Shown here: piece by piece, positions 1-55,040 of the stretch
How positions within the stretch are numbered: the stretch's first letter is position 1
How the letters are laid out: each line of letters opens with the position of its first letter
Assembly: GCA_964476065.1 (NCBI GenBank)
Contig: CAYYYX010000003.1
Location: 1,906 to 65,905, forward strand
From: an uncultured Verrucomicrobiota bacterium
GTDB taxonomy: Bacteria > Verrucomicrobiota > Kiritimatiellia > Kiritimatiellales > Tichowtungiaceae
Reading direction: 5' to 3'
DNA: 64,000 nt
Translations under genes and position numbers: made by a program
The notes under the pieces: model-generated
Database searches by the model: none
The model's input: the letters and a program-made list of their open reading frames with translations, nothing else
Told to the model about the DNA's origin: nothing

Positions 1-51
1 AAAAATCATCAAAGTTCGTCCCGGCCTTCCGGCTTGAATCCTCGCAGCCTT

Positions 52-79
52 CTAATAAACCCCTAATGCTCTCCTAACA
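52..79 (+). promoter_or_regulatory. Candidate Pho box upstream of pstS: direct hexamers CTAATA (52), CTAATG (63), CTAACA (74) with exact 11-bp phasing
   Basis: Read directly from the sequence. Hexamer direct repeats phased at 11 bp are the PhoB/PhoP box architecture. phoB-phoR lie in the same cluster. The 10-mer tcctaacacg recurs at 1616. Confidence 0.4.
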
Positions 80-195
80 CGTCGTCTTCATATTCTGAAC
101 CGTACAAAGCGGATGACGGAAGTTGGAGGCGAAAGGAAAGACCTCCCGCCGGAGTCCGCACTAACGAACTCAGTTGAAAACTAGGAGACTCTAAA

Positions 196-1014
196 ATGAA
201 AAAAGTACTATTCAGTAGCATCCTCATCGCCGCCGTCGCACTCAGCGCCGTCGCCGAAGATAAAATCGTCCTCGATGGGTCCACCACCGTTGGCCCCATC
301 GCCAAAGCCTTCGCCGAATATTTCATGTCGGCTCATCCCGACGTGAACATCACCGTCAGCGAGTCCGGTAGCGGCAACGGTGCCAAAAGCCTCGTCAACG
401 GCGTGTGCGATGTCGCCAACATGTCCCGCCCAATGAAAGACAACGAATTCACTGCCGCCGCAGGGAAGGGCATCCAGCCCGTTGCTCATGTGGTTGCGCT
501 CGACGGACTACCGATCCTCGTCAACCCGCAGAACCCCGTCAAAGGGCTCACCCTCGAACAGGTGCGCGACATCTACCTCGGAAAAATCTCCAACTGGAAA
601 CAGGTTGGCGGCCCGGATCTGAACATTGTTGTCATCAGCCGTGACACCAACTCCGGCACCTACGAAACCTTCGAAAAAATGGTCATGGCCAAACAGAAAA
701 TAACTGGAAAGGCTGAATACGTCGGCAGCAACGGCGCCATTCGCCAGCGCGTACAAAGCACCCCGGCCGCCATCGGCTATGCCGGACTCGGCTTCGTCGA
801 CAAAACCGTCAAAGCCCTCGAAGTCAACGGCGTCTACCCGAGCGGAGCCACTGTCCAGACCGGCGAATACCCGATTGCCCGCCCGCTCTTCATGTACACC
901 AGCGGCTATCCGAAACTCGGATCCTCCGTCTACCAGTTCGTCACCATCCACCTGACCGAAGACGGACAGGAAATCGTCGAAGAAATCGGATTCGTCCCGG
1001 TAACGGCTTACTAA
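196..1014 (+). CDS. pstS: Phosphate ABC transporter substrate-binding protein PstS
   Basis: 272-aa ORF with signal peptide MKKVLFSSILIAAVALSAVA. PstS-like motifs DGSTTVGP, SGSGNG, YPIARPLF. AGGAG ribosome-binding site upstream. Followed by pstC/A/B. Confidence 0.92.
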   Translation: MKKVLFSSILIAAVALSAVAEDKIVLDGSTTVGPIAKAFAEYFMSAHPDVNITVSESGSGNGAKSLVNGVCDVANMSRPMKDNEFTAAAGKGIQPVAHVVALDGLPILVNPQNPVKGLTLEQVRDIYLGKISNWKQVGGPDLNIVVISRDTNSGTYETFEKMVMAKQKITGKAEYVGSNGAIRQRVQSTPAAIGYAGLGFVDKTVKALEVNGVYPSGATVQTGEYPIARPLFMYTSGYPKLGSSVYQFVTIHLTEDGQEIVEEIGFVPVTAY

Positions 1015-1037
1015 GCCTCAGCAACACAACCGAAAGA

Positions 1038-1077
1038 GCGGGTTTTCCAAACCTTGGAAAACCCGCGTTTTTGTTTT
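1038..1077 (+). terminator. Rho-independent terminator after pstS, built on a TTCCAA-N3-TTGGAA core
   Basis: Perfect 29-nt palindrome gcgggttttccaaaccttggaaaacccgc followed by gtttttgtttt. Confidence 0.7.
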
Positions 1078-1184
1078 CCCTTCCGCTCCCGTTGAAATCC
1101 CGTATGCTGATTGGCCGATGTTTCAGGGAGCGGAAAAGATGGAACCTTCTACAACACCGTCAAAACATCCGACTGAAGGGGTGA

Positions 1185-1610
1185 GATTACACCTCGCCGG
1201 GCGGCTATTTCGTAACCATCAACACGCACGAAAGCCAGGCGCTGTTCGGCGCGATCATCAACGGGGAAATGGTGCTTAATGAGGCGGGGAAGATTGCCGA
1301 AGAGAAATGGCGTAAAAGTGCGGCCATCCGCAATTATATCCGATTTAATCCGCAGAATTATGATGTCGTGATGAATGTTGGAGAACCGCAGTTCCTTGGA
1401 GACCGCGCGCTCCTCGAACGGCCGAAAGTCGGGTTCCTTTCTTCGAGGGGTGCGGATGCCCCGCATGGCCGCTTGCCGGTCAAATTCGGCAAGGCCATTA
1501 TCAGTGGATTTCTTTCTCCCATGGAGCGCGCGGTTTTCAACGCCGGGCTGGAGTATAAAAAGCCGCTTGCTCATCATCTCGCCCTTTGCCGTTCATTCGC
1601 GGTTAAATAA
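1185..1610 (+). pseudogene. Decayed mosaic ORF: N-terminal fragment of a Y1 (IS200/RAYT, COG1943-like) transposase without the HUH motif, followed by a possible DprA/Smf-like fragment
   Basis: In-frame translation GGYFVTINTHESQALFGAIINGEMVLNEAGKIAEEKWRKSAAIR...YDVVMN resembles the N-terminus of RAYT-type proteins but stops where MPNH-H-G (HUH) should be. There is no ATG at the frame start. The tail LLERPKVGFLSSRG...AIISGFLSPMERAV looks DprA-like, recognised from memory only. Confidence 0.4.
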
Positions 1611-1617
1611 CTCCTTC

Positions 1618-1645
1618 CTAACACGGGGCTAATCGTTTTCTAACA
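1618..1645 (+). promoter_or_regulatory. Second candidate Pho box, upstream of pstC: CTAACA (1618), CTAATC (1629), CTAACA (1640) at 11-bp phasing
   Basis: Same hexamer family and phasing as at 52-79. Lies 22 nt upstream of the pstC start. Confidence 0.4.
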
Positions 1646-1667
1646 TTGGGCGGGCATTCTCTGTCCC

Positions 1668-2825
1668 ATGTTAGAAAACAGTTCAACAACTCCAGCGTCC
1701 AGACGAAGCCTGGTGATGAGCGCGAGTAGCAGCCGCTGGCGGCGCTTGGGTGCCATGTTGGGGCAAGGGTCTCTTTTTCTGATCACCTCTCTTTCCACTT
1801 TCGCGGTGTTCTTCATTTTCTATTTCATCGCCAAAGACGCGATCCCGTTTTTTCAACTGGAGGGCTTTAAGGAATTCTTCACGTCGACGAGCTGGTATCC
1901 GTCCGGTCATCCGGCCGAGTTCGGTGCGATGTCGATTTTCTTTGGAACGGCGATTGTGACGTTCGGCGCGGTGGTGGTTGCGGTTCCGCTCGGTGTTTCC
2001 GCCGCGGTTTGTCTGAGCGATGTGCTTCCATTTTCAGCGCGGCAGGTGGTGAAGCCGGTCATCGAAATTCTGGCGGCGATTCCGTCGGTGGCGTACGGAT
2101 TTTTTGCACTGGTTGTTTTGGCTCCTCTTTTACAGGAGAAGGGCGGCGCGGTTCTTTCATTGGCTTCGTGGCTGGTCATCGGCCCCGTGTTGGTTTTAGC
2201 GATCTTTGTCTTGGGCGATCTGATTGCAGGTCGTGCACCGGAGCGATTCCAACGAATGACTCGTTGGGTGAGTATTCTATTTCTCGGTGCGGTGGGCTTT
2301 GTGTTGATGAAGAACCTAAGCGCGACGCTGTCGGCCATTGAGATTGCCAGCGGAACCAATGCGCTCAACGTTTCCCTCATTCTCGGGATCATGGCGCTCC
2401 CTACGGTGGTCAGCGTTTCGGAGGATGCCCTGCAAGCGACCGGTCGTGATCTGCGCGAAGGTAGTTATGCCCTCGGCGCAACCCGCGCCGAAACGATTGT
2501 CCGAACCGTCATCCCCGCCTCGCTCAGTGGAATTCTTGCAGCGGTCATTTTGGGCGTGATGCGGGCGGTCGGCGAAACGATGGTGGTCTGGATGGCCTCC
2601 GGAAACTCCGCGCGGTTGCCGTCGCCGTGGTACAACGTGTTGCAACCCGTTCGTACACTCACCGCCACCATCGCGGGCGATATGGGCGAGGCCGACCACG
2701 TCACCGGGTCGTCCCGCTTTCACGTCCTCTTTGCGATGGCGCTCTGCCTGCTCGCCTTTTCATTCATCATGAACCTCGTCAGTGAGGCCATTGTCCGCCG
2801 TTCGCGGAAGAAAATGGGTAAGTAA
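1668..2825 (+). CDS. pstC: Phosphate ABC transporter permease PstC
   Basis: 385 aa, multi-TM. Permease EAA-type loop SEDALQATGRDLREGSYALGATRAETI. Positioned between pstS and pstA. Confidence 0.9.
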   Translation: MLENSSTTPASRRSLVMSASSSRWRRLGAMLGQGSLFLITSLSTFAVFFIFYFIAKDAIPFFQLEGFKEFFTSTSWYPSGHPAEFGAMSIFFGTAIVTFGAVVVAVPLGVSAAVCLSDVLPFSARQVVKPVIEILAAIPSVAYGFFALVVLAPLLQEKGGAVLSLASWLVIGPVLVLAIFVLGDLIAGRAPERFQRMTRWVSILFLGAVGFVLMKNLSATLSAIEIASGTNALNVSLILGIMALPTVVSVSEDALQATGRDLREGSYALGATRAETIVRTVIPASLSGILAAVILGVMRAVGETMVVWMASGNSARLPSPWYNVLQPVRTLTATIAGDMGEADHVTGSSRFHVLFAMALCLLAFSFIMNLVSEAIVRRSRKKMGK

Positions 2826-2988
2826 GGGATTGGAATAGTGGAATGAAGGATTGTTGGAATAATGGAATAGAGATGAGCAGGAGCTCTGGAGGAGTTATGT
2901 CTTTCCAGTCTCTAATTTTTCCCGTGTTTCAATATTCCCATATTCCAGTATTCCAATTTTCTGCATTTGAATTCCGGAGGAATGCATA
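2826..2988 (+). repeat. GGAAT/ATTCC intercistronic inverted-repeat element, copy 1 (pstC|pstA)
   Basis: Left arm attggaatagtggaatgaaggattgttggaataatggaatagag (2829-2872). Right arm tttcaatattcccatattccagtattccaatttt (2927-2960). Right arm ends 28 nt before the pstA ATG. Confidence 0.75.
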
Positions 2989-4335
2989 ATGCGTCTTGCG
3001 ACCCGTAAACTTTTAGATCGATCTTTCTCCGGCATGGGGCTGGTTGCCATTGCTGTGATGGCGATGGCGCTGGTTGTCATTTTGGCTCCGATCATCGGGA
3101 AGGGCGCTGGCGCTTTCGTTTTCCGGGGAACGATTGAACATCGCAAAGTGATGTCCAATGTTTGGAACCGTGGCAACCCCGAACAGATGGCGGAGGCCAT
3201 CGCGCAAACGGATGCCGCACGTCAGCCGATTTACGACCTGATTTCTACGTTCGAGGCCGACCTGAAAGAACTGCCGCGTGCGGATCGCAAACCCTATAAG
3301 CAACCGCTTCGCGATTTGAAAAAATCGATTGCCAGCTTGTTGGGGCCTGAGCCCGGCGCACGAACTCCCGTGTTGATGCGCCAGCAGTACGGCGCAACCC
3401 GGATGGACCGCGCAGACATCAAGCTTCAAGAAATCCTGATGACCGAAGAGTGGGACTATTCGAATCCCGATGTGATGGGTGTGTTGGTGAAAACCCCGCG
3501 ACTCGAACAGTTCGCTGGAACCTCGCTGGAGCCGCTTTTCCAAACCTTGGAAGAAAACGTCGGTGCCCTGCTTCAGCCGCAGTTGACTTTCTATTGGCAG
3601 TTCCTCATCGACACCTCCAAAGACTCACACATTTTCGGCGGGATCGGCCCCGAGGTTCTCGGAACTCTTTATTTGACTCTCGGCGCGATGCTCTTCGCCA
3701 TTCCGATGGGGGTGATCGCCGCGATTTACCTGTGCGAATACGCCAAAGAAGGGCGCGGCATTAGTTTTATCCGCACCTGCATCAGCACGCTCGCCGGCGT
3801 TCCGAGTATCGTATTCGGGCTCTTTGGATTGGCCTTCTTTTTGAACACCATTCACATTTCAGATTCGAAAAGCGTTCTCGCCGGATCGCTCACGCTCGCG
3901 CTACTGGTTTTGCCGACCATCATCCGATCCTCGGAAGAAGCGATCCTCGCTGTGCCGCGCGCCTATAAAGAAGCAGCCATGAGCCTCGGCGCGGGCAAGT
4001 GGCACACGGTGCTCACCGTCATTCTGCCTGCCGCGCTGCCGGGGATTTTGACCGGAGTGGTTATCAGCATGGGACGCGCCGCCGGTGAAACCGCGCCGAT
4101 CATTTTCACTGCCGCCGTCAGCGTAGGCCGTCCGCTTCTTCCGTTGCAAACGCTCTCGCAACCGACGCCCGCGCTACCGTGGAATATTTATAATCTCTGT
4201 ACCGAGCACGAAGCCGTTGACGAAATCCGCCACGTCCAATTTGGAATGGTCTTTACGTTGATCGCTATTGTTCTGTTGCTCAATACCGTCGCCATCATCA
4301 TGCGCGCTCGCATCTCCAAAAAACTGAGAGGATAG
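2989..4335 (+). CDS. pstA: Phosphate ABC transporter permease PstA (long form)
   Basis: 448 aa. EAA loop SEEAILAVPRAYKEAAMSLGAGKWHT. Large extracytoplasmic insert after TM1. Positioned between pstC and pstB. Confidence 0.9.
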   Translation: MRLATRKLLDRSFSGMGLVAIAVMAMALVVILAPIIGKGAGAFVFRGTIEHRKVMSNVWNRGNPEQMAEAIAQTDAARQPIYDLISTFEADLKELPRADRKPYKQPLRDLKKSIASLLGPEPGARTPVLMRQQYGATRMDRADIKLQEILMTEEWDYSNPDVMGVLVKTPRLEQFAGTSLEPLFQTLEENVGALLQPQLTFYWQFLIDTSKDSHIFGGIGPEVLGTLYLTLGAMLFAIPMGVIAAIYLCEYAKEGRGISFIRTCISTLAGVPSIVFGLFGLAFFLNTIHISDSKSVLAGSLTLALLVLPTIIRSSEEAILAVPRAYKEAAMSLGAGKWHTVLTVILPAALPGILTGVVISMGRAAGETAPIIFTAAVSVGRPLLPLQTLSQPTPALPWNIYNLCTEHEAVDEIRHVQFGMVFTLIAIVLLLNTVAIIMRARISKKLRG

Positions 4336-4509
4336 GGAAAGTGGAATGATGGAATAAAGGAATGTTGGGGGGAGGGAGAGCGGAATGTTGGAATATTGGG
4401 ATAAAGGAATGTTGGGATATTGGATGAATAGAGTCGTGGAATATGGGTCGGGAATTTTCCGATTCCATTGTTCCATCATTCCAGTATTCCATTTCCCCAT
4501 GGAGGTTTT
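4336..4509 (+). repeat. GGAAT/ATTCC intercistronic inverted-repeat element, copy 2 (pstA|pstB)
   Basis: GGAAT-rich arm gtggaatgatggaataaaggaatgttgg...cggaatgttggaatattgggataaaggaatgttgggatattgg. ATTCC arm gattccattgttccatcattccagtattccatttcc ends at the GGAGG ribosome-binding site of pstB. Confidence 0.75.
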
Positions 4510-5334
4510 ATGAGTGAAGAAATAAAAATGAAAAAGGCCGCGCATTTTGCGGAGTACGAAAAGGGTACGCCCGGCAAAAAGTCCGATCATATTAAAACGG
4601 AAGATTTTTCCGTATTCTATGGCGATTTCGAAGCCGTGAAAAAGGTGACCTGCGGATTTCCGAAAGGGCTCGTCACTGCCATGATCGGGCCGAGTGGATG
4701 CGGGAAAAGCACGATGCTCCGCTCGATCAACCGTATGAACGACCTCATCCCGCGGTGCCGGGCCAAAGGCAAAATGGTTTTTGCCGACGAAAATATTTAT
4801 AGCCGGGATGTCGATGTGGTTTCGCTTCGGATGCGTGTCGGCATGGTATTTCAAAAACCCAATGTCTTTCCAAAATCCATTTACGACAACATCGCTTATG
4901 GCCCGCGATTGCAAGGCATCCGCAATCGAGCGCAACTCGATGAGCTCGTCGAGAACAGCCTTCGCCAAGCCGCTATTTGGGACGAAGTGAAAGATCGCCT
5001 CACCTCCAATGCGCTTGGCATGTCCGGGGGGCAGCAACAGCGCCTTTGCTTGGCTCGCGCTCTAGCTGTGAAACCCGAAATCCTGCTGATGGACGAGCCG
5101 ACCTCCGCGCTCGACCCCAAAGCCACGGCAAAAATCGAAGACCTGATTGCCCAGCTGCGTGGGCAATACACCTTGATCATCGTTACGCACAATATGCAAC
5201 AGGCCGCCCGCGTTTCAGATCTGACCGCCTTTATGTACGAAGGAACGCTGGTGGAATTTGGAGAAACGAAAGAAATATTCACTCGCCCCGCAAAGCAACA
5301 AACCGAAGACTACATCACTGGACGATTTGGGTAG
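4510..5334 (+). CDS. pstB: Phosphate import ATP-binding protein PstB
   Basis: Walker [10 protein letters not shown], signature SGGQQQR, Walker [12 protein letters not shown]. Start placed at ATG 4510 behind GGAGG. The ORF-track start at 4468 reads through the repeat element. Confidence 0.93.
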
Positions 5335-5386
5335 GAAAAGAAGGTCAAATAGCGAATATAGAATAAGGAACCGCAGAAGGGACGAT

Positions 5387-5423
5387 CCCCTCCATTGGAG
5401 GGGTGCCCGAAGGGCGGGGTGGG
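5387..5423 (+). repeat. CCCCTCC-N3-GGAGGGG hairpin repeat with GC-rich tail (family also at 51050-51130)
   Basis: cccctccattggaggggtgcccgaagggcggggtggg. Compare 51072-51088 cccctccagaggagggg and 51098-51130. Confidence 0.6.
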
Positions 5424-5474
5424 TTTTCTGCTTCCAGTTTCAAATTTCAAAATTCACTCCAAAGGAGATTCAAT

Positions 5475-6143
5475 ATGTCACAAGTATTCATGAACGAAGT
5501 GGAACGGCTGAAGCGCCAGATTCTCAGTTTGAGCGCGATGGTCGAAGAGCATGTCATGCTCACGGTTAATGCGCTGCGGGAACGCGACGAAGCAAAAGCC
5601 AAGCAGGTGGTTAACAATGACAACCAAATTGATGCCGCCGAAGTCGAAGTGGAGGAGGAGGGGCTTAAAATCCTTGCGCTTCATCAACCCGTTGCGATCG
5701 ACCTCCGGTTTGTGACCGCCGTGCTCAAAATTAATAATGATTTGGAGCGGATCGGCGATATTGCGTCCAACGTCGCCAGGCGTACGCGGCGTCTTTGCCA
5801 AAATCCCGAAGTGGATGTTCCTTCTGAACTGATTGAGCTGGGCCGGCATGTTCGCGATATGCTCCACGACTCCCTAGATGCGTTTGTGATTCTTGATCCT
5901 GAAAAAGCGCTGGCCATTTGCGCCCGCGATGACCGTGCCGACGAGTTGACCCGAAGGGTTCGAACGCTGGCTCAAGAAGCAGCGGTGAATGATTCAGAAC
6001 GCTTGCCTCTTTATGTGGATATCATCCTCGCCGCCCGTAATTTTGAACGTATCGGCGATCTGGCCACGAACATCTGTGAAGACGTCATCTATATGGTGCG
6101 TGGTGAAATTGTCCGGCACAAAGACCTTGCAGAGTGCGATTGA
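5475..6143 (+). CDS. phoU: Phosphate signalling regulator PhoU
   Basis: 222 aa. Two PhoU repeats with ...NNDLERIGDIASN... and ...ARNFERIGDLATN.... AAGGAG ribosome-binding site before ATG 5475. Follows pstB. Confidence 0.9.
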   Translation: MSQVFMNEVERLKRQILSLSAMVEEHVMLTVNALRERDEAKAKQVVNNDNQIDAAEVEVEEEGLKILALHQPVAIDLRFVTAVLKINNDLERIGDIASNVARRTRRLCQNPEVDVPSELIELGRHVRDMLHDSLDAFVILDPEKALAICARDDRADELTRRVRTLAQEAAVNDSERLPLYVDIILAARNFERIGDLATNICEDVIYMVRGEIVRHKDLAECD

Positions 6144-6200
6144 TTTGTGCTGGCTCCGACCTATTGCCTCCATTACTCTGACGCGCAAGAAAGCTCTCTT

Positions 6201-6890
6201 ATGAAAAACCATATTTTGATTGTTGAAGACGAAGAGGATATTCGCGAACTCGTTCGTTATAACCTCGAGCGCGAAGGGTTCAGTGTTTCTGAGGCGGAGT
6301 CTGGGGAAGAGGGGCTGAAAAAAGTTTTGAAAAAGAGACCCGACCTGATCCTGCTTGATTTGATGCTCCCGGGAAAAGACGGGATGCAGGTTTGCCGGGA
6401 ACTCAAACAAAATGAAGAGGCCCGCAGCATTCCGATCCTCATGATGACAGCGCGCGGCGAAGAGAGCGATATTGTCGCGGGGCTCGAGCTGGGGGCCGAA
6501 GATTACATTGTTAAACCCTTTAGCCCTAAGGTGCTGATGGCGCGCGTTAAAGCGGTTTTGCGGCGTAACACCTCGCCCGAGCCTGCCGATGAAGCGGTTC
6601 TCAGTATCGGAGATCTCGTAATTCATCCCGGACGCCATCAAGTCACCGTGGGCGGAAAACCGGTGGATCTAACCGCCACCGAGTTCGGAGTTTTGCATCT
6701 GTTGGCCCGCCGTCCCGGTTGGGTGTTTACGCGCTATCAAATTGTCGATGCAGTACACGGCGAAGATTATCCAGTCACCGAACGTTCCGTGGATGTGCAG
6801 ATCGTCGGGTTGCGTAAAAAGATGAAGAAGGCAGGCACGCTGATCGAAACCGTGCGAGGGATCGGCTATCGGTTCGGAGACGGGGCTTGA
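6201..6890 (+). CDS. phoB: OmpR-family response regulator, PhoB-like
   Basis: Receiver domain MKNHILIVEDEEDI...DLILLDLMLPGKDG, then a winged-helix C-terminus (VDVQIVGLRKK...TVRGIGYRF). Stop overlaps the phoR start. Confidence 0.85.
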   Translation: MKNHILIVEDEEDIRELVRYNLEREGFSVSEAESGEEGLKKVLKKRPDLILLDLMLPGKDGMQVCRELKQNEEARSIPILMMTARGEESDIVAGLELGAEDYIVKPFSPKVLMARVKAVLRRNTSPEPADEAVLSIGDLVIHPGRHQVTVGGKPVDLTATEFGVLHLLARRPGWVFTRYQIVDAVHGEDYPVTERSVDVQIVGLRKKMKKAGTLIETVRGIGYRFGDGA

Positions 6891-8656
6891 TGAAAGCCAA
6901 ACGAATTTTTTGGAAGCTGTATCCGAGTTATCTCCTCGTCACATTGCTTTCGCTGGCGGCCGTCTTTTTTCTCTCTTCATCGGCGCTGCGCCAGTTCTAT
7001 GAAGGGCAAACTTCGGACAGTCTCAAGGTGCAAGCCTCTTTTGCGGGCGAGCAGATGCGGGGGCAATTCGGGTCAGACCAGCTTGCTCAGACGACAGATC
7101 GTTTGGGGAGTCAGACCTCGGCGCGGATCACGGTCATTCTTCCCGACGGGTTGGTCGTGGGCGAGTCTGAAAAAGCCCCGTCCAAAATGGGTAATCATCG
7201 CGTCCGTCCTGAAATACAGGAAGCGTTGAGCGGACGGATCGGAGAATCGGTCCGTTTCAGTAATACACTGAAGAAAAATATGATGTATGTCGCGGTGCCC
7301 GTTTTACGTGACGACGAGGTGATTGGGGTTGTTCGCGCGGCTCTTCCGCTCTCGGAAATGGAACAACTGTTCGACCCAATGCAACAGCGTATCATCTGGG
7401 GCGGTCTCGCCATTCTTTTGTTGGCGGCAATTTTTAGCTTGGTGATCTCTCGTCGCATTTCTCAGCCTCTCGAAAAAATTAAGCAGGGGGCGGAGCGCTT
7501 TGCCGACGGGGATTTTTCTCATCGGCTTCATCCCGGTGGGTCCGCCGAAATTGGTTCTCTGGCGGAAAGCATGAACAGCATGGCTGCTCAGTTTGAAGAA
7601 CGTTTGAGCTCGGTGGTTCAGGAGCGCAATCAGCGCGAAGCCATCCTTTCCAGTATGGTCGAGGGCGTGTTGGCGGTCGATACCGAGGGCCACATCATCA
7701 GCCTCAACAAAGCTGCCGCGCATTTTTTCCAAGTGTTGGACCCTGCCACAGCCACCGGACGCAGTATCGAAGAGGTCTTCCGGAACGTGAAGCTACAGAA
7801 GTTTATCAGTGAAGTTCTCGAAGCGCAGGAAACCTGCGAGTGCGAATTTCAGGTGCAGAACAACGAACGGTTTGATCTGCAGGCGCGCGGCACCAACTTG
7901 CTCGGCGTGCAGGGCGAGCGGGTCGGCGCCGTCGTGGTCTTTAACGATGTCTCCCGCCTGCGGCGTCTCGAAAATCTGCGGCGCGACTTCGTGGCCAATG
8001 TCTCCCACGAATTGAAGACTCCGATTACCTCGATTAAAGGATTTGTCGAAACGCTGCTCGATGGCGCGATGAACGATCCTGCCGAAGGCGAGCGCTTCCT
8101 CACGATCGTTGCGAAACACGCCGACCGCCTCAACGCCATCATTGACGATTTGCTCACACTCTCTCGCCTCGAACAGGGAAGCATTGAAGAGCTAGATGTG
8201 TATCCGGCAAATTTGGCTGGGTTGATTCGTTCGTCGGTTGAGGTCTGTTCGCGCCGCGCCACGAAGAAAGGGATCAGCGTTCGGGTGGAGTGCCCGGAAG
8301 AACTCAGCGTCCGAGTCAGTCAGCCTCTCATTGAGCAGGCACTCATCAACCTCATCGGCAATGCGGTTAAATACAGCGCCGACGATAAAACCGTTAGGAT
8401 TTATGTGCGGGCTGAAGCGGGCGAAACCATTCTCTCTGTAGAGGATCAGGGCTACGGGGTCGAATCCGAGCATCTTGACCGGCTTTTCGAGCGGTTCTAC
8501 CGCGTCGACAAAGGCCGTAGCCGCCAAGAGGGTGGAACCGGGCTGGGTCTCGCCATCGTCAAGCATATCGCGCAGGTCCACGGCGGGCGTGTCGAAGTTC
8601 AAAGCACCTTCGGGCAAGGCTCCGTCTTTGCCATCTTTCTTCCCGCCACATCCTAG
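6887..8656 (+). CDS. phoR: Sensor histidine kinase, PhoR-like (TM-HAMP-PAS-HisKA-HATPase)
   Basis: 589 aa. H-box LRRDFVANVSHELKTPITSIKGF. ATPase motifs GNAVKYS and GGTGLGLAIVKH. Translationally coupled to phoB. Confidence 0.85.
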   Translation: MMKAKRIFWKLYPSYLLVTLLSLAAVFFLSSSALRQFYEGQTSDSLKVQASFAGEQMRGQFGSDQLAQTTDRLGSQTSARITVILPDGLVVGESEKAPSKMGNHRVRPEIQEALSGRIGESVRFSNTLKKNMMYVAVPVLRDDEVIGVVRAALPLSEMEQLFDPMQQRIIWGGLAILLLAAIFSLVISRRISQPLEKIKQGAERFADGDFSHRLHPGGSAEIGSLAESMNSMAAQFEERLSSVVQERNQREAILSSMVEGVLAVDTEGHIISLNKAAAHFFQVLDPATATGRSIEEVFRNVKLQKFISEVLEAQETCECEFQVQNNERFDLQARGTNLLGVQGERVGAVVVFNDVSRLRRLENLRRDFVANVSHELKTPITSIKGFVETLLDGAMNDPAEGERFLTIVAKHADRLNAIIDDLLTLSRLEQGSIEELDVYPANLAGLIRSSVEVCSRRATKKGISVRVECPEELSVRVSQPLIEQALINLIGNAVKYSADDKTVRIYVRAEAGETILSVEDQGYGVESEHLDRLFERFYRVDKGRSRQEGGTGLGLAIVKHIAQVHGGRVEVQSTFGQGSVFAIFLPATS

Positions 8657-8657
8657 T

Positions 8658-8751
8658 TTCCAAGGCTGGGAAAAACTGACGTTTATTTTTCCAATGGTTG
8701 GAGAAAATCGGTAGAACCTTTCCAATCATTGGAAAGCAACTGCGTTGCGGA
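8658..8751. repeat. Cluster of three TTCCAA-N3-TTGGAA motif copies (8658 and 8689 each with 1 mismatch, 8719 perfect) plus abutting palindrome GCAACTGCGTTGC
   Basis: tttccaaggctgggaaaa / ttttccaatggttggagaaaa / tttccaatcattggaaagcaactgcgttgc, directly after the phoR stop. Confidence 0.8.
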
Positions 8752-8774
8752 TTTAGATTTGTGAAAACAACCAG

Positions 8775-9608
8775 ATGAAGACAATTGCTATCATGGGACT
8801 GGGGCTGATGGGCTCCTCGCTGGGGCTCGCGCTGAAGAAGCGCGGAGTCGATGTGGAGGTCCGCGCCTATGCACGCCGCGCCGAAACTCGCGATGCGGCG
8901 CTGGAGGTCGGTGCGGCAGACGCCGTTTTCAGCGATCCGGTTGAAGCGGTCCAGGGTGCGGACATGGTTGTTTTCTGTGTTCCAATTTTAAAGATCCCCG
9001 AGCTGGCGAAGGCCTGTTTGTCTGGATTGAGCCCCGAAGCGGTTCTGACCGATGTTGGAAGCACCAAGGCTGAACTCGCTATCTTAATGGACGGCCTTCT
9101 CGCTGGAACCGATGTCGTATTTGTCGGCTCGCATCCGATCTGTGGTTCCGAGCAACAGGGGATTGAAGCGGGGAAATCCAATTTGTATAAGGGCGCGGTG
9201 ACGGTGGTGACTCCGCAGGCGGATGCGGTTGAAGGAACGGTCTCTGAAGTTTCCAACCTTTGGAAAAGTGTCGGGGCCAGCGTCCGCGTGATGAGCCCAG
9301 AAACACACGACGAAATTTTGGCCACGACCAGTCATTTGCCGCACATGGTCGCGGCGACATTGGTACGTTCTGTGAACGATGGTCTTTTTTGCGGAACCGG
9401 TTTTCTCGACACCACTCGTGTCGCGGCGGGATCGCCGGAGGTCTGGAGCGATATTGTCCAAACCAACGCGCCCGCGCTGAAGTCCGCGCTGAAAGTTTTT
9501 CAGGAACATCTCGATGAACTCAATTCACTGATCGATGCGGCTGACGGCGAAAAGCTGTCTGCATGGTTTGCCACTGCGCGCGATAAACGCAAGGAGCTTC
9601 TGGGTTAG
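8775..9608 (+). CDS. tyrA: Prephenate (or arogenate) dehydrogenase
   Basis: 277 aa. Rossmann N-terminus MKTIAIMGLGLMGSSLG, plus GSHPICG and TSHLPH motifs. Upstream of aroA. Confidence 0.8.
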   Translation: MKTIAIMGLGLMGSSLGLALKKRGVDVEVRAYARRAETRDAALEVGAADAVFSDPVEAVQGADMVVFCVPILKIPELAKACLSGLSPEAVLTDVGSTKAELAILMDGLLAGTDVVFVGSHPICGSEQQGIEAGKSNLYKGAVTVVTPQADAVEGTVSEVSNLWKSVGASVRVMSPETHDEILATTSHLPHMVAATLVRSVNDGLFCGTGFLDTTRVAAGSPEVWSDIVQTNAPALKSALKVFQEHLDELNSLIDAADGEKLSAWFATARDKRKELLG

Positions 9609-13058: not shown

Positions 13059-14563
13059 TGAGTAAGCAGACAAAAACAGCAATTTCCCCGACCCGTGAAG
13101 AGAATTATCCAGAGTGGTATCAGCAGGTGGTTCGCCACGCCGAATTGGCGGAAAACAGCGACGTGCGCGGGTGCATGGTGATTAAGCCGTGGGGCTACGC
13201 TCTTTGGGAAAATATCCGCACCGGACTGGATCGGTTTTTCAAGGAAACGGGCCATTCGAACGCATATTTTCCTTTGTTTATCCCTGTGAGTTATTTGGAG
13301 AAAGAGGCCGAGCATGTCGATGGCTTTGCCAAAGAGTGCGCGGTGGTGACCCATCATCGGTTAGAGCAGAACGCAGACGGCAAGTTGATTCCGGCCGGCA
13401 AATTGGATGAGCCGCTGGTGGTGCGCCCCACATCCGAAACCATCATTGGTGCGACCTATGCCAAGTGGGTGCAGAGCTACCGTGATTTGCCGATTCTCAT
13501 TAACCAGTGGGCCAATGTCGTTCGCTGGGAGATGCGCACGCGTCTGTTTTTACGGACCGCTGAGTTCCTTTGGCAGGAGGGTCACACCGTCCACGAAACC
13601 AAAGACGAGGCGTGGGAAGAAACGGTCAAAATGTTGAATGTCTATAAACAGTTCGCCGAGGAGTACATGGCGATGCCCGTGCTGACGGGTGAGAAAACGG
13701 CCGGCGAGCGTTTTCCCGGTGCGGTCAACACGCTGTGCATCGAAGCGATGATGCAGGACTGCAAAGCGCTGCAGGCAGGAACCAGCCACTTCCTCGGTCA
13801 GAATTTTGCCAAAGCCTCGGGAATTAAGTTCCAGTCGCGCGAAGGCCGCGAGGAAGTTGCGTGGACGACTTCCTGGGGTGTTTCAACGCGTTTGATCGGC
13901 GGAATGATTATGACGCACGGCGACGATGACGGAATGATCATGCCGCCGCGCCTCGCGCCGAGCCATGTTGTGATTCTTCCGATTCTCCGGAAAGGTGCCG
14001 ATGAAGACGCCATTTTGAAGTACTGCCATGAGACTGCCGCGATGCTTCGTGAGCAGACCTATGCCGGTCGACCGGTGGAGGTTGTGGTGGACAGTCGCGA
14101 TGTGAATGCCGGCGAAAAAGGCTGGGGCTGGGTCAAAAAAGGTATTCCGGTTCGTGTTGAAATCGGTCCGCGCGATATGGAAAGCAATTCGGTTTTTGTG
14201 GCGCGCCGCGATAAGGGGCCGAAGGAAAAGTACGGTCAGGATCGTGTAGAGTTTGCCGCCTCCATTCCTTCGGTGCTCGAAGAAATGCAACAGGGACTCT
14301 TCGAGCGGGCCTGTGCCTTTCGCACAGAGCATACTCGTGAGATTAATGGCTGGGAAGATTTCGTCGATTTCTTTAAGACGGGGGCTGGCGGGTTTGCCTT
14401 GGCGCATTGGGATGGAACGGAAGAGACAGAGAAAAAGATTAACGATGAATTGTCTGTAACGATTCGTTGTATTCCGTTTGATTACGAGGATTCAGGTTCG
14501 GGCGAATGTATCGTGAGCGGTAAGCCGAGTAAGGGCCGCGTTGTGTTTTCAAAAAGCTATTAG
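13055..14563 (+). CDS. proS: Proline--tRNA ligase (archaeal/eukaryote-like type with C-terminal Tyr)
   Basis: 502 aa. ...NYPEWYQQVVRHAELAE...RGCMVIKPWGYALWE.... Class II motifs present. Ends ...SKSY. Confidence 0.88.
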   Translation: MMSKQTKTAISPTREENYPEWYQQVVRHAELAENSDVRGCMVIKPWGYALWENIRTGLDRFFKETGHSNAYFPLFIPVSYLEKEAEHVDGFAKECAVVTHHRLEQNADGKLIPAGKLDEPLVVRPTSETIIGATYAKWVQSYRDLPILINQWANVVRWEMRTRLFLRTAEFLWQEGHTVHETKDEAWEETVKMLNVYKQFAEEYMAMPVLTGEKTAGERFPGAVNTLCIEAMMQDCKALQAGTSHFLGQNFAKASGIKFQSREGREEVAWTTSWGVSTRLIGGMIMTHGDDDGMIMPPRLAPSHVVILPILRKGADEDAILKYCHETAAMLREQTYAGRPVEVVVDSRDVNAGEKGWGWVKKGIPVRVEIGPRDMESNSVFVARRDKGPKEKYGQDRVEFAASIPSVLEEMQQGLFERACAFRTEHTREINGWEDFVDFFKTGAGGFALAHWDGTEETEKKINDELSVTIRCIPFDYEDSGSGECIVSGKPSKGRVVFSKSY

Positions 14564-18667: not shown

Positions 18668-18740
18668 CGGCTCCGCCGGAGGCGTCGCCCTACCTATATT
18701 TTCCAGTTGTCTAGGTAGGGCGAACTCTCCGAGTGAGCCG
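18668..18740. repeat. REP-like inverted doublet with GTAGGGCGA cores
   Basis: cggctccgccggaggcgtcgccctacct ... aggtagggcgaactctccgagtgagccg. The two units are inverted, with ...CCCTAC / GTAGGG... facing each other. Confidence 0.6.
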
Positions 18741-19495: not shown

Positions 19496-21173
19496 CTTCG
19501 ATTATTTCCTGCCGCTGACGCAGGATCGCTTTGGATGTTGCGCAGAGATGCTCATCCCGATAGGGGATAGAACGACGCTTATCAAAAGTTCCAAAGGTTG
19601 GAAAAATGGATGGTAGTTCTGATGGCGAAGCAATCGTGCCGTTGCCCATTTGATGGCCCGGCTCGGTTTCTGCTATGAAGAACCCCGCTTCGCGCATTGC
19701 ACCGCGCACGGGCATTGACGATGAATAGGTCAGCAATACGCCGTTCGGCTTCATCACTCGATGCAGTTGTTTGAAAAACTCCACGGTCCAGAGTTCCGGA
19801 CAGTGCTGGCTCGAAAACGGATCGTGAAAGACAACGTCAAAGACGTTGTCTTCAAGATTTTGGATTAAATATCTGGCATCCCCAAAACGGAGGTCAGTTT
19901 TTCCAAGGGTTGGAAAATCTACTGGGCCGTTAAGGAGCAGAGAGAGCGTTTGGTTCCAGTCGACCGGATCTTTTTCCAATGTTTGGAAACTTTTGGCCGC
20001 GGCGCGGACAATTCGTTTGTCCATCTCCAGCGCGGTGATGTCGATGTTGTGTTTGGCACCGTTTGCCGCGCAGAGGGAGGCGAGCGAGTTATTGCCGAGT
20101 CCAAAGCAGACGTCGAGGAGTTTGAGGTTTGAGGTTTGGAGTTTGGAGGCCAGTTCGGACGGTTCGACAAACTTCTTGTCCGCCTCCAGCCGTGCGCCCG
20201 TCTTGGTGTGGTAATGCTCTTTCCAATCCTCGGAAAAGAAGGTGATCGATCCATCATCTGTGATAACCGGAGTTGGCTCTGCTTCTGTTTTCAAGTGTCC
20301 AGCTTCAAGCGGGTCGCCCTGTGTGATCTCTCTCATTCTCATTTGCTGGATTACGTAGTCAAGGAATTGACCTTTTTCGAGGTGCCAGTGCGGGGCGATG
20401 AGCTGGTCGTCCGGCGTATCGGTGGATATGCGCATGACGGGGATGTCGGCAGGGATGCGGCGGAGGAAATCGATCAGCCCTTCGGCGTATTCCCAATGAT
20501 TCAGCACGGTCGGCGGGTTTTCGGCCAGTTCGGTTCCCTTCATAATGTGCAGGTTGTGAATCTTGATTCCAGAGATTGGAAGTTTTGCCAATTCCCCTGC
20601 GGTTCGACTCCAGTCATTAGGGGTTTCTCCGGGCAGGCCGAGAATAATATGCGGGGCGACATGAATGCCGCGTTCGGCAAGGGCGAGAATTGCCTGTTTG
20701 CTGCATTCCCAGTCGTGACCCCTATTGATCATTTTTAGCGTTTCGTCATGTGCCGTCTGCACACCGAGCTCTAACCACACCTCATGAGGTGTGGTTAGAT
20801 TCTGGAGGAAGTTGAGGGCGGTATCTGGCAGGCAGTCGGGGCGCGTCCCAATGCTGATGGCCTCGAAGTCGAATGCGGAAAGCAGGTCAATGATTGCCTG
20901 TTGTTGGTTGGGATCGGTTAGGTCGGCGGTGAAGGCCTGAATGTAGAGCATGAACTTTTTGGCTTTGTAGCGGCGTTTGGAGAATTTAATTGCTTCTTCC
21001 GCTTGTTCGAGCGGGCTTTCCTGCCGTTGGGTCTGTTGCGCTCGTGCTCCGTTTTCGGAGCAGAAGGCGCAGCGTCCATGGGGGCAGGAAGAGGAAATTT
21101 CAACGGGAATGCGGAACAGCGGCTCGCCGTACCGTTTGATCATCCACGGCTTATATTGAACAAACGGGGTCAT
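19476..21173 (-). CDS. Fusion protein: TIGR01212-like radical SAM domain (N-terminal) and MnmC-type (DUF752) SAM-dependent tRNA methyltransferase domain (C-terminal)
   Basis: N-terminus KRYGEPLFRIPVEISSSCPHGRCAFCSENG... is YhcC/TIGR01212-like. Middle PVITDDGSITFFSEDWKEHYHTKTGARLEADKKF. C-terminus DVVFHDPFSSQHCPELWTVEFFKQLHRVMKPNGVLLTYSSSMPVRGAMREAGF parallels E. coli MnmC DAWFLDGFAPAKNPDMWT...[22 protein letters not shown]. Single 565-aa ORF. Confidence 0.65.
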   Translation of the reverse strand: MTPFVQYKPWMIKRYGEPLFRIPVEISSSCPHGRCAFCSENGARAQQTQRQESPLEQAEEAIKFSKRRYKAKKFMLYIQAFTADLTDPNQQQAIIDLLSAFDFEAISIGTRPDCLPDTALNFLQNLTTPHEVWLELGVQTAHDETLKMINRGHDWECSKQAILALAERGIHVAPHIILGLPGETPNDWSRTAGELAKLPISGIKIHNLHIMKGTELAENPPTVLNHWEYAEGLIDFLRRIPADIPVMRISTDTPDDQLIAPHWHLEKGQFLDYVIQQMRMREITQGDPLEAGHLKTEAEPTPVITDDGSITFFSEDWKEHYHTKTGARLEADKKFVEPSELASKLQTSNLKLLDVCFGLGNNSLASLCAANGAKHNIDITALEMDKRIVRAAAKSFQTLEKDPVDWNQTLSLLLNGPVDFPTLGKTDLRFGDARYLIQNLEDNVFDVVFHDPFSSQHCPELWTVEFFKQLHRVMKPNGVLLTYSSSMPVRGAMREAGFFIAETEPGHQMGNGTIASPSELPSIFPTFGTFDKRRSIPYRDEHLCATSKAILRQRQEIIEVTEQTL

Positions 21174-23610: not shown

Positions 23611-23755
23611 AGAACGTCCTTGGGGCATTGGAATGATCGAGGGGTGGAATAATGGAAGAATGGATCGCTGGAAAAAGAGAATGCTGACGGGGAAATCAGC
23701 TGAGATGTTTTCCTCTTTTCAATACTCCAATATTCCATCACTCCAATACTCCTCT
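23611..23755 (-). repeat. GGAAT/ATTCC intercistronic inverted-repeat element, copy 3 (exeA|gspB-like, minus strand)
   Basis: On the minus strand: gaggagtattggagtgatggaatattggagtattgaaaag ... cattcttccattattccacccctcgatcattccaatgcc, then AAGGA ribosome-binding site and ATG. Confidence 0.7.
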
Positions 23756-30973: not shown

Positions 30974-32024
30974 ACTTCAAGTCCTGCAGGTCGAGTACGG
31001 TGAACATGGATGCGGCTAAATTTTCTGCCAGTTTCGGACGAATCCCAAGGCCCATTTCGCCAAGCGTTGTCAGCCCGTCACGCATCATGCCGAACCCGAG
31101 TTGGGCAGCGGGAATGGCAACCTGCGGAACTTCCAAATAAAGCCGATCGCCGACGGATAGCTCGCGGTTTTCCAAGGTTTGGAAACCGACTGAGTCGGAG
31201 CATTTTGTTTTTTCCAAGGGTTGGAAAAAACCGGGCTGGGCTTTCCAGAGCGTGGAAAGCAGGTAGTTATGGCGCTGTTCGATGTGGTCGCGGGCGAGGT
31301 CGCGGATGTCATCGAGCACTTGGCATCCAATGCCAAACTGAAGCATCGCCTCTTTCAGTGCGGTGGCGCGCTTGCGGTCAAGATGCGGTTCGATCACTTC
31401 CGGCCCGAGAAACGCGACGTTAAAGAGAATGCCGGTTTTATAGCGGTGGATGACATTAAGCACGTGTTCTGGATCGGGGCGTTCGGTGACGCCTTCTTCT
31501 TCGCTGGCTTCCTGCGCGGCGCTGGGGAGAAGAATTTGAAGGGAGCGGTCGGAAAGTTCCTGTGCCTGCGCGGCGGTCAGGGCGCCGGTCTCGCGACCTT
31601 CGGCGAGCAGTTGTTGAAAGATGCGGTCGGCCGTCATAATGGAAACCACTTGCCGCATCACACGCGAGGATCCGGGCATCTGAATGGGGATCACCACTTT
31701 GTCTTCATCGTCGAGCAGGTTGTCGGCACTTGTCACCCAGATGCGAAAGAGGTGAATCAGCTTTCCATAAAAGAGGCGGTGCTGTGGGTCGCAGTCCATT
31801 AGGTGATACACCGACTGAAAGAGGGTGGAGAAAATATTTTTGCGCAGGGCGTAGAACGAATCGGGAATGGAATCCATCGAAACGGTGTACTCGGCGGGGG
31901 TGCCCGCTGGGACACTTAGAACGCGATCCGCCGTGCCATAAACCGATTTAATAGCCGTCCGTTGTTCGTCGAACGCCGCTTTAAAGAGTCGGCCCGCATT
32001 CCAAAGTTCTGTCCAGTTTTGCAT
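30966..32024 (-). CDS. Divergent class-I isoprenoid synthase-fold protein (polyprenyl-synthase-like)
   Basis: 352 aa. Two Asp-rich blocks in polyprenyl-synthase-like contexts: TSADNLLDDEDKV and FGIGCQVLDDIRDLARD. Confidence 0.35.
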   Translation of the reverse strand: MQNWTELWNAGRLFKAAFDEQRTAIKSVYGTADRVLSVPAGTPAEYTVSMDSIPDSFYALRKNIFSTLFQSVYHLMDCDPQHRLFYGKLIHLFRIWVTSADNLLDDEDKVVIPIQMPGSSRVMRQVVSIMTADRIFQQLLAEGRETGALTAAQAQELSDRSLQILLPSAAQEASEEEGVTERPDPEHVLNVIHRYKTGILFNVAFLGPEVIEPHLDRKRATALKEAMLQFGIGCQVLDDIRDLARDHIEQRHNYLLSTLWKAQPGFFQPLEKTKCSDSVGFQTLENRELSVGDRLYLEVPQVAIPAAQLGFGMMRDGLTTLGEMGLGIRPKLAENLAASMFTVLDLQDLKYA

Positions 32025-35069: not shown

Positions 35070-35136
35070 AGGTAGGGCATTTTCGCCGGAAGCACCGCGG
35101 ACAGCTCGGCGAGCTGTCCCTACCCATGTGTAGGAC
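35070..35136. repeat. REP-like inverted doublet (GTAGGGC... / ...GTCCCTAC)
   Basis: aggtagggcattttcgccggaagcaccgcgg acagctcggcgagctgtccctacc, then tgtgtaggac. Confidence 0.55.
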
Positions 35137-45645: not shown

Positions 45646-45780
45646 AAAATGGAATAATGGAATATCGGAGTGAGGGAGTATTGGAAAACAGAAAACATGA
45701 GTTATTGACTCGGCTATGTTAATTCTTCAGCATTCCCGTTTTCCAAAATTCCAGTATTCCATTTCTTCAGAGGAGTTTTT
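45646..45780 (+). repeat. GGAAT/ATTCC intercistronic inverted-repeat element, copy 4 (nadA|nifU)
   Basis: aaaatggaataatggaatatcggagtgagggagtattggaaaac ... cattcccgttttccaaaattccagtattccatttc, then AGAGGAG ribosome-binding site and ATG 45781. Confidence 0.75.
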
Positions 45781-48689: not shown

Positions 48690-48766
48690 TGTAGGACACG
48701 CTTCCCTGTATTCAGGGAGCGTGTGGAGCACACAGGCTCTTTGAGTACAAAGAAGCCTGTCCTACA
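48690..48766. repeat. REP/REPIN-like inverted doublet (TGTAGGACA...hairpin / hairpin...TGTCCTACA)
   Basis: tgtaggacacgcttccctgtattcagggagcgtgt ... cacaggctctttgagtacaaagaagcctgtcctaca. Confidence 0.65.
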
Positions 48767-50057: not shown

Positions 50058-50112
50058 TGTAGGGCGGGCTCCTTGATCCCGCCTCCGCCCCGAAGGTTCG
50101 GGGCGGCTACAG
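50058..50112 (+). repeat. REPIN-like element: GTAG + two GC hairpins + CTAC
   Basis: tgtagggcgggctccttgatcccgcctccgccccgaaggttcggggcggctacag. A near-identical inverted copy lies at 55061-55116. Confidence 0.8.
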
Positions 50113-50113: not shown

Positions 50114-50319
50114 TTCCAAACCTCGGAAACCATACCTTGCAAGGTATGGTTTATATCGACTTCAATTTCCAAGGGTTGGAAAAAAATCGCAAGCTGCAAC
50201 GCAGTTGCTTCCAAACATCGGAAAAATTTGGTTCTATTCTTCCAATGTTTGGAAAAAGTCAGCACGCCGCAACGCAGTTCAAAGACCCCGAGCCTTCGGG
50301 GTGCTTCCAATGATTGGAA
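50114..50319. repeat. Array of five TTCCAA-N3-TTGGAA motif copies (50114, 50167, 50209, 50240, 50305) interleaved with GCAACGCAGTT(GC) units, upstream of rnc
   Basis: Read directly. Copies at 50167, 50240 and 50305 are perfect; those at 50114 and 50209 have tCggaa. Confidence 0.85.
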
Positions 50320-50320
50320 A

Positions 50321-52987: not shown

Positions 52988-53155
52988 AAGAAGCCATCCT
53001 GCCGGATGGCGGAAGGTTGGAATCAAGGAATTCTGGAATTATGGTTGTTGTTAAAAAAGTAAGAAAACCGAGACAGTCTGAGGGGATCAAGTTATTTTCT
53101 TTTTCACTGCTCAATATTCCAATGTTCCACTAATCCATTAATCCAAGGAATTATT
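52988..53155 (+). repeat. GGAAT/ATTCC intercistronic inverted-repeat element, copy 5 (ldt|accA)
   Basis: aaggttggaatcaaggaattctggaattatgg ... tcaatattccaatgttccactaatccattaatcc, then AAGGA ribosome-binding site and ATG 53156. Confidence 0.7.
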
Positions 53156-54991: not shown

Positions 54992-55040
54992 AATAACTTC
55001 CTTGGAATATTGGAATGTAGGAATACTGGATTGGTGGTGA
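54992..55040 (-). repeat. ATTCC arm of the GGAAT/ATTCC element family directly upstream of folB (copy 6, single arm)
   Basis: Minus strand: ccaccaatccagtattcctacattccaatattccaaggaagttatt-ATG. Confidence 0.6.

Follow-up and report, generated by a model that had tools for sequence, protein, structure and literature searches.

Inverted arrays of a TGGAAT hexamer in intercistronic gaps of an uncultured Verrucomicrobiota bacterium resemble dispersed intergenic repeats

What fills the gaps between genes that normally abut or overlap? In a 64,000-nucleotide (nt) stretch of DNA from an uncultured Verrucomicrobiota bacterium (contig CAYYYX010000003.1; hereafter the window, meaning the whole stretch analyzed), pstC and pstA are separated by 163 nt and pstA and pstB by 174 nt. 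Both gaps hold a long inverted repeat, in which an array of GGAAT-containing units is followed by a loop and an array of ATTCC-containing units. An earlier note on this DNA, which had put the gaps at 160-175 nt, read this architecture as a transcribed RNA element with strict polarity relative to transcription and listed seven sites for it. We therefore asked whether the elements are a directional regulator or repeats that have come to lie between genes. Our analysis favors the second answer: they are probably dispersed intergenic repeats in the manner of repetitive extragenic palindromes (REPs) and bacterial interspersed mosaic elements (BIMEs), of enterobacterial repetitive intergenic consensus (ERIC) and Correia elements, or of miniature inverted-repeat transposable elements (MITEs), and not a pst-specific regulator. 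Any effect on mRNA decay or on the coupling of cistrons would be generic at most.

A periodic scan for four consecutive TGGAATRN units returned exactly 13 arms in the window with scores of 21.5-24.5, whereas whole-window mononucleotide shuffles gave a mean score of 17.8 and a maximum of 20.5. Similarly, GGAATNNNGGAAT occurs 15 times in the window, when 0.30 occurrences are expected from shuffles. The arms fall into five two-armed elements (E1-E5) and two one-armed elements (E6 and E7; Table 1), the same seven sites as listed before and at, or very near, the same positions. Each two-armed element consists of a TGGAATRN array with a strict 8-nt period (G-arm), a variable spacer and an inverted NYATTCCA array (C-arm); the elements are 120-175 nt long and their arms 36-110 nt. 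The first arm begins 0-10 nt past the upstream stop codon and the second stops 0-16 nt short of the Shine-Dalgarno sequence, which corrects the 10-30 nt first given for this distance. E7 is a single arm as described, and E6, also described as single, lacks its partner but for one possible GGAAT unit just after the upstream stop codon. Pfam searches on the flanking genes confirmed pstC, pstB, an AAA_22 "ExeA-like" gene, a T2SSB-domain gene, nadA, nifU, an L,D-transpeptidase gene, accA, folB and the malic enzyme gene. As had been suspected, the elements lengthen open reading frames (ORFs), that of pstB opening at a TTG at 4468 compared to the called start at 4510, and they create false "WNNG/IPSFHHS" peptides.

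The elements are also present in independent assemblies. A second strain shows 6 differences in 2101 bases (99.7% identical) with zero indels and keeps the elements, which are thus not assembly artefacts. In four metagenome runs, contig depth is 3- to 20-fold higher across the arms (2813-2883 and 4304-4516), where many contigs also end, implying that the arms occur in many copies in these communities and disrupt short-read assemblies. A PstA protein identical to that of the window is encoded on salt-lake and marine metagenome contigs.

The argument from polarity fails on logic, since the reverse complement of a G-arm, a loop and a C-arm has the same layout. A two-armed copy will therefore seem oriented with its gene whatever its history, and only asymmetric features can carry polarity. 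Many metagenome copies, among the matches listed, fit our search pattern (see below) on both strands. For 32 related elements lying between co-directional genes, again from the matches listed, the fold energy was better on the sense strand in 15 and on the antisense strand in 17, and the arm beside the upstream gene was the longer one in 10, the shorter in 12 and of equal length in 10. Likewise, in 5 of 12 short-unit elements from the pst gaps of relatives the sense strand had the greater stability. Nor do the two one-armed copies bear on polarity, as GTAG-type REPs stand where the second arm would be and the arm that survives is simply the one adjoining its gene: at E6 one such REP lies between the ATTCC arm and the possible unit remnant, and at E7 such REPs follow the GGAAT arm. 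The strict polarity claimed at first is thus not borne out.

Within the window, however, the two strands are not equal. All five two-armed elements fold better on the sense strand, with sense-minus-antisense differences of -17.4, -17.1, -4.6, -1.7 and -7.2 kcal/mol for E1 to E5, a strong effect for E1 and E2 only. Together the five contain 34 G:U pairs on the sense strand and 9 on the antisense strand, and an arm-to-arm alignment yields 40 sense-type and 24 antisense-type transition mismatches. E1 has 8 G:U pairs vs 1, plus more G and T than is predicted by third-codon composition, which is C-rich on the sense strand. These features, together with arms that begin 0-10 nt past stop codons and end at a ribosome-binding site and with the absence of indels from the elements of the second strain, would suit a directional cis-acting RNA element, in which hairpins were co-opted to set cistron levels or coupling and the sense-strand fold is under selection. 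We nevertheless regard such an element as unlikely. The sample is of five, and the advantage of E2 arises because its G-arm is duplicated; neither the 32 related elements nor the relatives' pst gaps show a bias. Deamination of the non-transcribed strand during transcription also yields sense-strand G:U pairs and would mimic the signal. Adjacency to a stop codon is expected of any insertion into a near-zero gap. Covariation is absent and the closest relative lacks the elements, as described below. We take the sense-strand bias of the window to be a weak local signal and not strict polarity.

The earlier note had counted the lack of a stable or covarying structure as evidence against its reading, and here the outcome is split. 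The repeated GGAAT-arm, loop and ATTCC-arm architecture does form hairpins: the gaps fold with z-scores of -5.7, -2.7, -3.8, -3.3 and -2.0 for E1 to E5, in each case as a long imperfect hairpin. Covariation, on the other hand, was absent from an alignment of 42 sequences. Arm-to-arm pairing was written into this alignment; the two free linker positions of the unit were the sole place for compensatory change. We found that 81.0% of cells were paired, compared to 82.2% with the 3′ partners shuffled among sequences, and 499 of 500 partner shuffles paired at least as well as the real alignment. Unit position 8 was unpaired in 50-76% of the sequences, depending on the unit. Linker identity was 0.63 and 0.33 at the two positions for arms of one element and 0.65 and 0.45 for arms of different elements, and an element's own arms folded slightly worse than swapped arms (-23.9 vs -25.1 kcal/mol, p = 0.014). 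The hairpin is thus a consequence of opposed arrays of one hexamer, and conservation lies with the hexamer and not with the pairing. Rfam 15 gave no match at gathering score, and a permissive search returned sub-threshold microRNA-precursor look-alikes only. An intrinsic terminator was also considered and rejected, as a scan of positions 1-9000 does not flag E1 or E2, though it flags the pstS terminator at 1038-1066.

A CsrA-type platform or sponge, proposed earlier on account of the many GGA triplets, is unlikely because in the predicted fold these triplets are buried in the stem, in the arm distal to the Shine-Dalgarno sequence. A CsrB/RsmZ-like RNA and a CsrA-controlled leader are likewise poor fits, the GGA motifs being neither loop-exposed nor overlapping the Shine-Dalgarno sequence in that fold. 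A CsrA-like ORF was not found in the window or in the Kiritimatiellales loci, which are genome fragments. One metagenome contig that bears an element (L196) encodes a CsrA homologue at 970-1149 on the minus strand, 52% identical to Escherichia coli CsrA over 60 residues and ∼95 nt from the GGAAT hairpin; a single csrA neighbor among ∼640 ORFs is within chance.

If the elements regulated the pst operon, they might be expected at its junctions in relatives. The best relatives in a species-level genome collection are Pontiellaceae/Kiritimatiellales metagenome-assembled genomes and isolates, with PstA proteins 93% (L004), 79% (L006) and 72% (Pontiella sulfatireligans) identical to that of the window. 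In L004 the pstC-pstA gap is ∼13 nt and the pstA-pstB gap ∼54 nt, with no hairpin in either; pstC and pstA lie 0-3 nt apart in L005, L008 and many others. Among 77 genome loci (∼1.1 Mb), only L006 has clear GGAAT arms, at one site between pstA and pstB and at another between phoB and phoR (13525-13650), two genes that overlap by 4 nt in the window. The phoB stop codon TGA of L006 lies inside the first GGAATGA unit. The elements are hence not conserved at orthologous junctions and vary by presence and absence between relatives. As for a target-site duplication, the only empty site available is that of L004, where the junction has diverged too far for the element ends to be placed.

The relatives carry other short-unit elements at their pst junctions, which also start right after the stop codon (Table 1). 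These include CACGGAATACACAGAATA hairpins, (TGAAACC)n arrays without a partner arm (a type common to three Pontiella genomes), GATTTTAGATTTC with AAAATTCAAAA hairpins, and CACAGATT with AATCTGTG. Since different short-unit repeats occupy these places, the pst junctions are permissive landing or growth sites for lineage-specific repeats and not the seat of one conserved regulator.

Beyond close relatives, we searched metagenomes with a strict two-arm pattern consisting of GGAATRATGGAATA, 60-90 nt and ATTCCANTATTCC. At least 120 metagenome contigs match it, and none of 2.9 million viral contigs does, for which reason a phage origin was rejected. The related elements follow approximately the form (TGGAATRN)3-6, an AT-rich variable spacer and (NYATTCCA)3-6. 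Among the matches listed, the unit T-GGAAT-R-N keeps its 8-nt period in 533 of 561 spacings, with a purine at position 7 and almost no constraint at position 8, and the hexamer reaches at least 90% conservation also in units outside the requirement of the pattern; many copies also have an inner TGGGT/ACCCA pair beside the spacer. The spacers are unrelated in 89 of 116 listed elements and in all window copies. Because the host contigs listed range from 34 to 62% GC and encode proteins only distantly related to those of the window (the pst operon of L190, for instance, is 45-52% identical), the family, as judged by GC and protein identity, appears to span distant bacteria. A search of the searchable literature returned no published description, only analogues (PMC3733652, PMC4679880), and the repeat family is apparently undescribed.

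The arms also keep one order. A C-array followed by a G-array was not found within 150 nt in 809 kb, a sample ascertained with the G-then-C order; the seven two-armed copies of the window and L006 were not so ascertained. Read as codons, G-arm units form mini-ORFs (ATG GAA TAA/TGA/TAG), e.g. at 2856-2872 and 45650-45665, and the C-arm, being without G, has no start codon or Shine-Dalgarno-like sequence. From the sequence, this could explain why only the G-then-C order is tolerated upstream of genes.

The regularity of the arms raises the question of whether each grew where it stands, by replication slippage of the 8-nt unit and without copying between loci. A strict tandem period, arms of variable length, the doubled G-arm of E2 and unrelated spacers are all consistent with such growth. 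Fresh slippage, however, gives identical neighbors, and adjacent units are identical less often than by chance (0.09 vs 0.16), so the arrays are not fresh slippage products. In addition, over 100 contigs of distant organisms have the same hexamer, the same G-then-C order and the same inner TGGGT/ACCCA pair, and the independent origin of two inverted arrays at each locus is implausible. Taken together, we consider local growth very improbable.

Conservation of the hexamer could instead reflect a binding-site array, where a sequence-specific factor reads the hexamer every 8 nt and the hairpin is incidental. Candidates would be an oligomeric TRAP- or CsrA-like protein that binds RNA at the GGAAU arm, a protein or transposase that binds DNA at both arms, or an RNA polymerase sigma factor. 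Such a factor would account for a hexamer held in units that the search did not require, for two linker positions that are free and do not covary, for adjacent units that avoid identity, and for the same hexamer in distant bacteria. With the T that follows it, the commonest unit reads TGGAATAAT, i.e. "TGn" followed by AATAAT. The extended -10 promoter consensus is TGnTATAAT, from which TGGAATAAT differs by one mismatch (at -12) with the free positions at -9 and -8, a resemblance only. The CsrA homologue encoded ∼95 nt from the element of L196 also fits, though it is within chance as noted above. We know of no factor for this hexamer, and several observations speak against one. CsrA typically binds in single-stranded loops, but here the GGA triplets are paired within stems. 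Window hexamers are partly decayed (TGGAGT, AGGATT, TGGGAT), which makes a strong present-day constraint on them less likely. The elements listed are also depleted between divergent genes, where promoters are needed. We therefore hold a binding-site array in this form to be quite improbable.

The gene context bears on the same point. Both neighbors were called for 38 listed elements, of which 32 are flanked by co-directional genes, 4 by convergent and 2 by divergent ones; the background for gaps of at least 60 nt in the same loci is 71%, 10.5% and 18.6%, respectively. This amounts to a mild avoidance of promoter regions, as is seen with REPs. Near the 120 related loci listed no transposase recurred, and the protein families that did were ABC transporters, kinases and redox enzymes only. 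No gene was found between distant arms either, and a partner transposase at these loci was dropped as a candidate. Integron attC sites and CRISPR arrays were set aside on architecture and gene context. Two loci (L081 and L137) hold two copies each with related spacers, a hint of donor-recipient copying. Two groups with shared spacers were first considered as transposed copies, but a conserved flanking motif and non-coding modules recur in most of their members, which may therefore represent equivalent loci or pieces of a larger repeat unit.

These flanking modules were noted in their own right. At ∼30 metagenome loci (e.g. L085, L095, L108, L113, L137, L142, L174 and L194) a module of the form AATTG-(GGGCGAAGCCCC or TGAGCGAAGCGAAC)-TAAGTT comes immediately after the ATTCC arm. 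The module contains the sequence GCGAAGC, which is known to form a very stable DNA mini-hairpin. The next downstream gene runs in the same direction in 9 of 12 cases, in 6 of those with the start codon 4-53 nt away. The module also occurs after unrelated GC-rich hairpins (L176, L140) and is absent from the window. At ∼25 metagenome loci a non-coding motif, CGTCTCGGAAATTCTACAA, lies ∼70 nt upstream of the GGAAT arm (e.g. L108 4679, L113 582, L142 1908, L187 and L196 688) and is not the end of a long ORF. The motif, the hairpin and the GCGAAGC module together make a ∼230-nt unit upstream of various genes; CGTCTCGGAAATTCTACAA, too, is absent from the window.

How do the elements compare with known repeats? 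In E. coli, REPs stabilize upstream mRNA (malE-malF) and can reduce translation when within ∼15 nt of the stop codon. REPs and BIMEs are built on imperfect palindromes of 20-40 bp with a GTAG or CGTC tag at one end and are linked to RAYT transposases (PMC3733652). Like our elements, they are high-copy intergenic palindromes, mostly at gene 3′ ends and inside operons, patchy between relatives and found in mosaics with other repeats, and they are co-transcribed (PMC3733652), as ours very probably are. The GGAAT elements differ in their length of 120-175 nt, in lacking the GTAG/CGTC tag, in their TGGAAT/ATTCCA ends and in arms that are 8-nt tandem arrays. Correia/NEMIS elements of Neisseria and ERIC/IRU elements of enterobacteria measure 100-150 nt and have long inverted ends that form co-transcribed hairpins; Correia hairpins are cut by RNase III, and ERIC changes mRNA half-life. 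The insertion between genes, the size, the long inverted ends and the long fold-back hairpin are shared with the GGAAT elements, but in Correia and ERIC elements the interior is conserved and the terminal inverted repeats are ordinary and non-repetitive (Correia elements also have a TA target duplication), whereas ours have unrelated spacers and hexamer-array arms.

Tandem units are known from another class, the short tandemly repeated repetitive (STRR) sequences of cyanobacteria, which are intergenic heptamer repeats. TAACTGA heptamer repeats occur in Beggiatoaceae, Cyanobacteria and Bacteroidetes, with CsrA, S1 and Csp proposed as binders (PMC4679880). The fixed 7- to 8-nt tandem unit, the intergenic position near start codons and the patchy spread across phyla are common to both (PMC4679880). 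Heptamer repeats, however, are direct on one strand and so have true polarity, while GGAAT arrays are inverted, fold back, and have an 8-nt unit with a degenerate last position. MITEs and IS200/IS605 palindrome-associated elements are small and non-coding, with inverted ends, presence/absence variation, and shared ends around unlike interiors. Here, too, inverted arrays form the element ends and orthologous sites are filled or empty. Unlike MITEs, the window copies share no interior (their five spacers are unrelated, and 89 of 116 listed spacers are singletons), and no partner transposase was seen near the related loci listed.

On the reading as dispersed repeats, the position of the elements would follow from the layout of the genes. 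As genes here normally abut or overlap, the sole tolerated place would be from a stop codon to the next ribosome-binding site, and the arms would touch both because this is the only viable position in near-zero gaps. Elements inside operons would be carried on the polycistronic mRNA. They are very probably transcribed, since they lie inside apparent transcription units, and to this extent the earlier description as a transcribed element stands; as a directional or conserved RNA regulator it does not, given no polarity, covariation or conservation. None of the RNA runs searched holds the window sequence, and three RNA runs from a study found via the P. sulfatireligans pst sequence gave no contig on that pst operon. 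Once transcribed, the two arrays would pair via their shared hexamer into a long imperfect hairpin, with 7-bp helices separated by single mismatches, whose base brings the stop codon close to the next start site. By analogy with the repeats described above, we infer that such a hairpin may form in vivo and affect decay or translation. It could be a barrier to 3′-to-5′ decay that protects the upstream segment from 3′ exonucleases, or a site for a double-strand RNase, leading to unequal mRNA levels of neighboring cistrons. It could also hinder the terminating ribosome while keeping stop and start codons near, which would leave coupling roughly intact.

Several points weigh against dispersed repeats, in addition to the sense-strand stability of the five window elements and the G:U pairs and composition of E1. 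No mobilizing enzyme or target-site duplication could be demonstrated, no transposase recurs near the 120 related loci listed, and the window copies share no spacers, giving no sign of recent copying in this genome. A hexamer that is kept between random linkers, with adjacent identity below chance, hints at recognition by some factor, and a passenger model leaves the fixed arm order and the same hexamer in distant bacteria unexplained. The hexamer arrays might accordingly be viewed as a recognition platform, on which a factor present in distant phyla, such as a single-stranded RNA/DNA-binding protein, a transposase-like enzyme or a sigma factor, would read TGGAAT/AUUCCA every 8 nt. We think this rather unlikely; if true, it would define either a new class of mobile DNA with tandem-binding-site ends or a pausing/polarity device at cistron boundaries.

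Table 1. Coordinates of the GGAAT elements and of other repeats in the window, and of other short-unit sites in relatives.
Feature	Coordinates	Strand	Basis or detail
E1, whole, between pstC and pstA	2826-2962	+	sequence and periodic scan
E1 5′ arm, degenerate TGGAATRN units	2826-2872	+	directly after pstC stop codon (2823-2825)
E1 spacer (loop)	2873-2915	+	sequence unlike spacers of other copies
E1 3′ arm, NYATTCCA units	2916-2962	+	
Small ATTCC-GGA-GGAAT hairpin	2963-2988	+	holds pstA Shine-Dalgarno GGAGG, just before ATG at 2989
E2, whole, between pstA and pstB	4336-4498	+	sequence, fold and periodic scan
E2 5′ arm, two consecutive TGGAATRN arrays (4336-4368, 4382-4444)	4336-4445	+	directly after pstA stop codon
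E2 3′ arm, ATTCCA units	4462-4498	+	GGAGG at 4501-4505; pstB ATG at 4510
E3, between AAA_22 "ExeA-like" gene and T2SSB-domain gene	23627-23755	-	directly after stop codon 23756-23758
E3 arms	G-arm 23716-23755; C-arm 23627-23671	-	
E4, between nadA and nifU	45646-45765	+	G-arm 45646-45690; C-arm 45728-45765
E5, between L,D-transpeptidase gene and accA	53011-53147	+	G-arm 53011-53046; C-arm 53106-53147
Small GC hairpin preceding E5	52993-53010	+	
E6, one-armed, ATTCC arm	54999-55042	-	directly upstream of folB ribosome-binding site and ATG (54991)
E7, one-armed, GGAAT arm	62548-62590	-	directly after malic enzyme stop codon; without ATTCC partner
GTAG-type REP	50058-50112	+	
GTAG-type REP	55061-55115	-	
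GTAG-type REPs	62418-62497	-	
Related to GTAG-type REPs	18690-18740; 35070-35125; 48735-48766		
Other short-unit site, L009	4246-4355		
Other short-unit site, L010	7655-7735		
Other short-unit site, L015	10541-10630		
Other short-unit site, L017	10520-10590		
Other short-unit site, L014	1053-1160		
Other short-unit site, L022	1393-1518		
Other short-unit site, L012	11848-11932		
Other short-unit sites, L007	10523-10650; 12002-12100		

The window holds two further repeat families. The first is a palindrome, TTCCA-N5-TGGAA (extended form TTTTCCAA-NNN-TTGGAAA), which occurs 38 times where 0.13 occurrences are expected, with 0 for the reverse arrangement. Sites are found, e.g., at 1045, 3538, 18750/18781/18811, 19589-20567, 21692/21723, 31170-31243 and 50167-50783. 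About 30 lie inside ORFs, in all three frames and often reading FQTLEK, and some are in tandem ∼31 nt apart. In pstA the palindrome was created by replacement of a Tyr conserved in 15 relatives, such that EPLF-x-Y-(V/I/L/M)-(E/K/P) became EPLFQTLEE, and the pstS intrinsic terminator, a 13-bp stem with a T-run, is built around one TTCCAA-ACC-TTGGAA palindrome. The motif looks like one driven at the DNA level, by analogy with uptake sequences or with cyanobacterial HIP1. Several Pontiellaceae loci reach up to 7 sites per 10 kb (L023 has 15 in 21.5 kb) and others have few or none; 745 kb of metagenome loci carrying GGAAT arms contain 2. We considered a tie to the GGAAT arms through the shared core TGGAA and rejected it: because the palindrome is dense in loci without arms and near-absent from loci with them, it is independent of the GGAAT hairpins. 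The second family, TGTAGGGCGGG...GGCGGCTACAG, is a GTAG-tagged REP-like palindrome as described for Planctomycetes-Verrucomicrobia-Chlamydiae bacteria (PMC3733652), and two of its sites are those found in place of the missing arms of E6 and E7.

The GGAAT element is a very regular repeat, with a strict period, a fixed hexamer, free linkers and one arm order, that is common to distant bacteria and patchy among close relatives. For an inverted repeat of this kind, having the same orientation as the gene is uninformative. Searching for (TGGAATRN)n with (NYATTCCA)n after it would be a simple way to flag the elements in many environmental genomes. They thereby offer a clean case for the origin of short-unit intergenic arrays, and for asking whether hairpins at cistron borders are tolerated passengers or operon-tuning tools.

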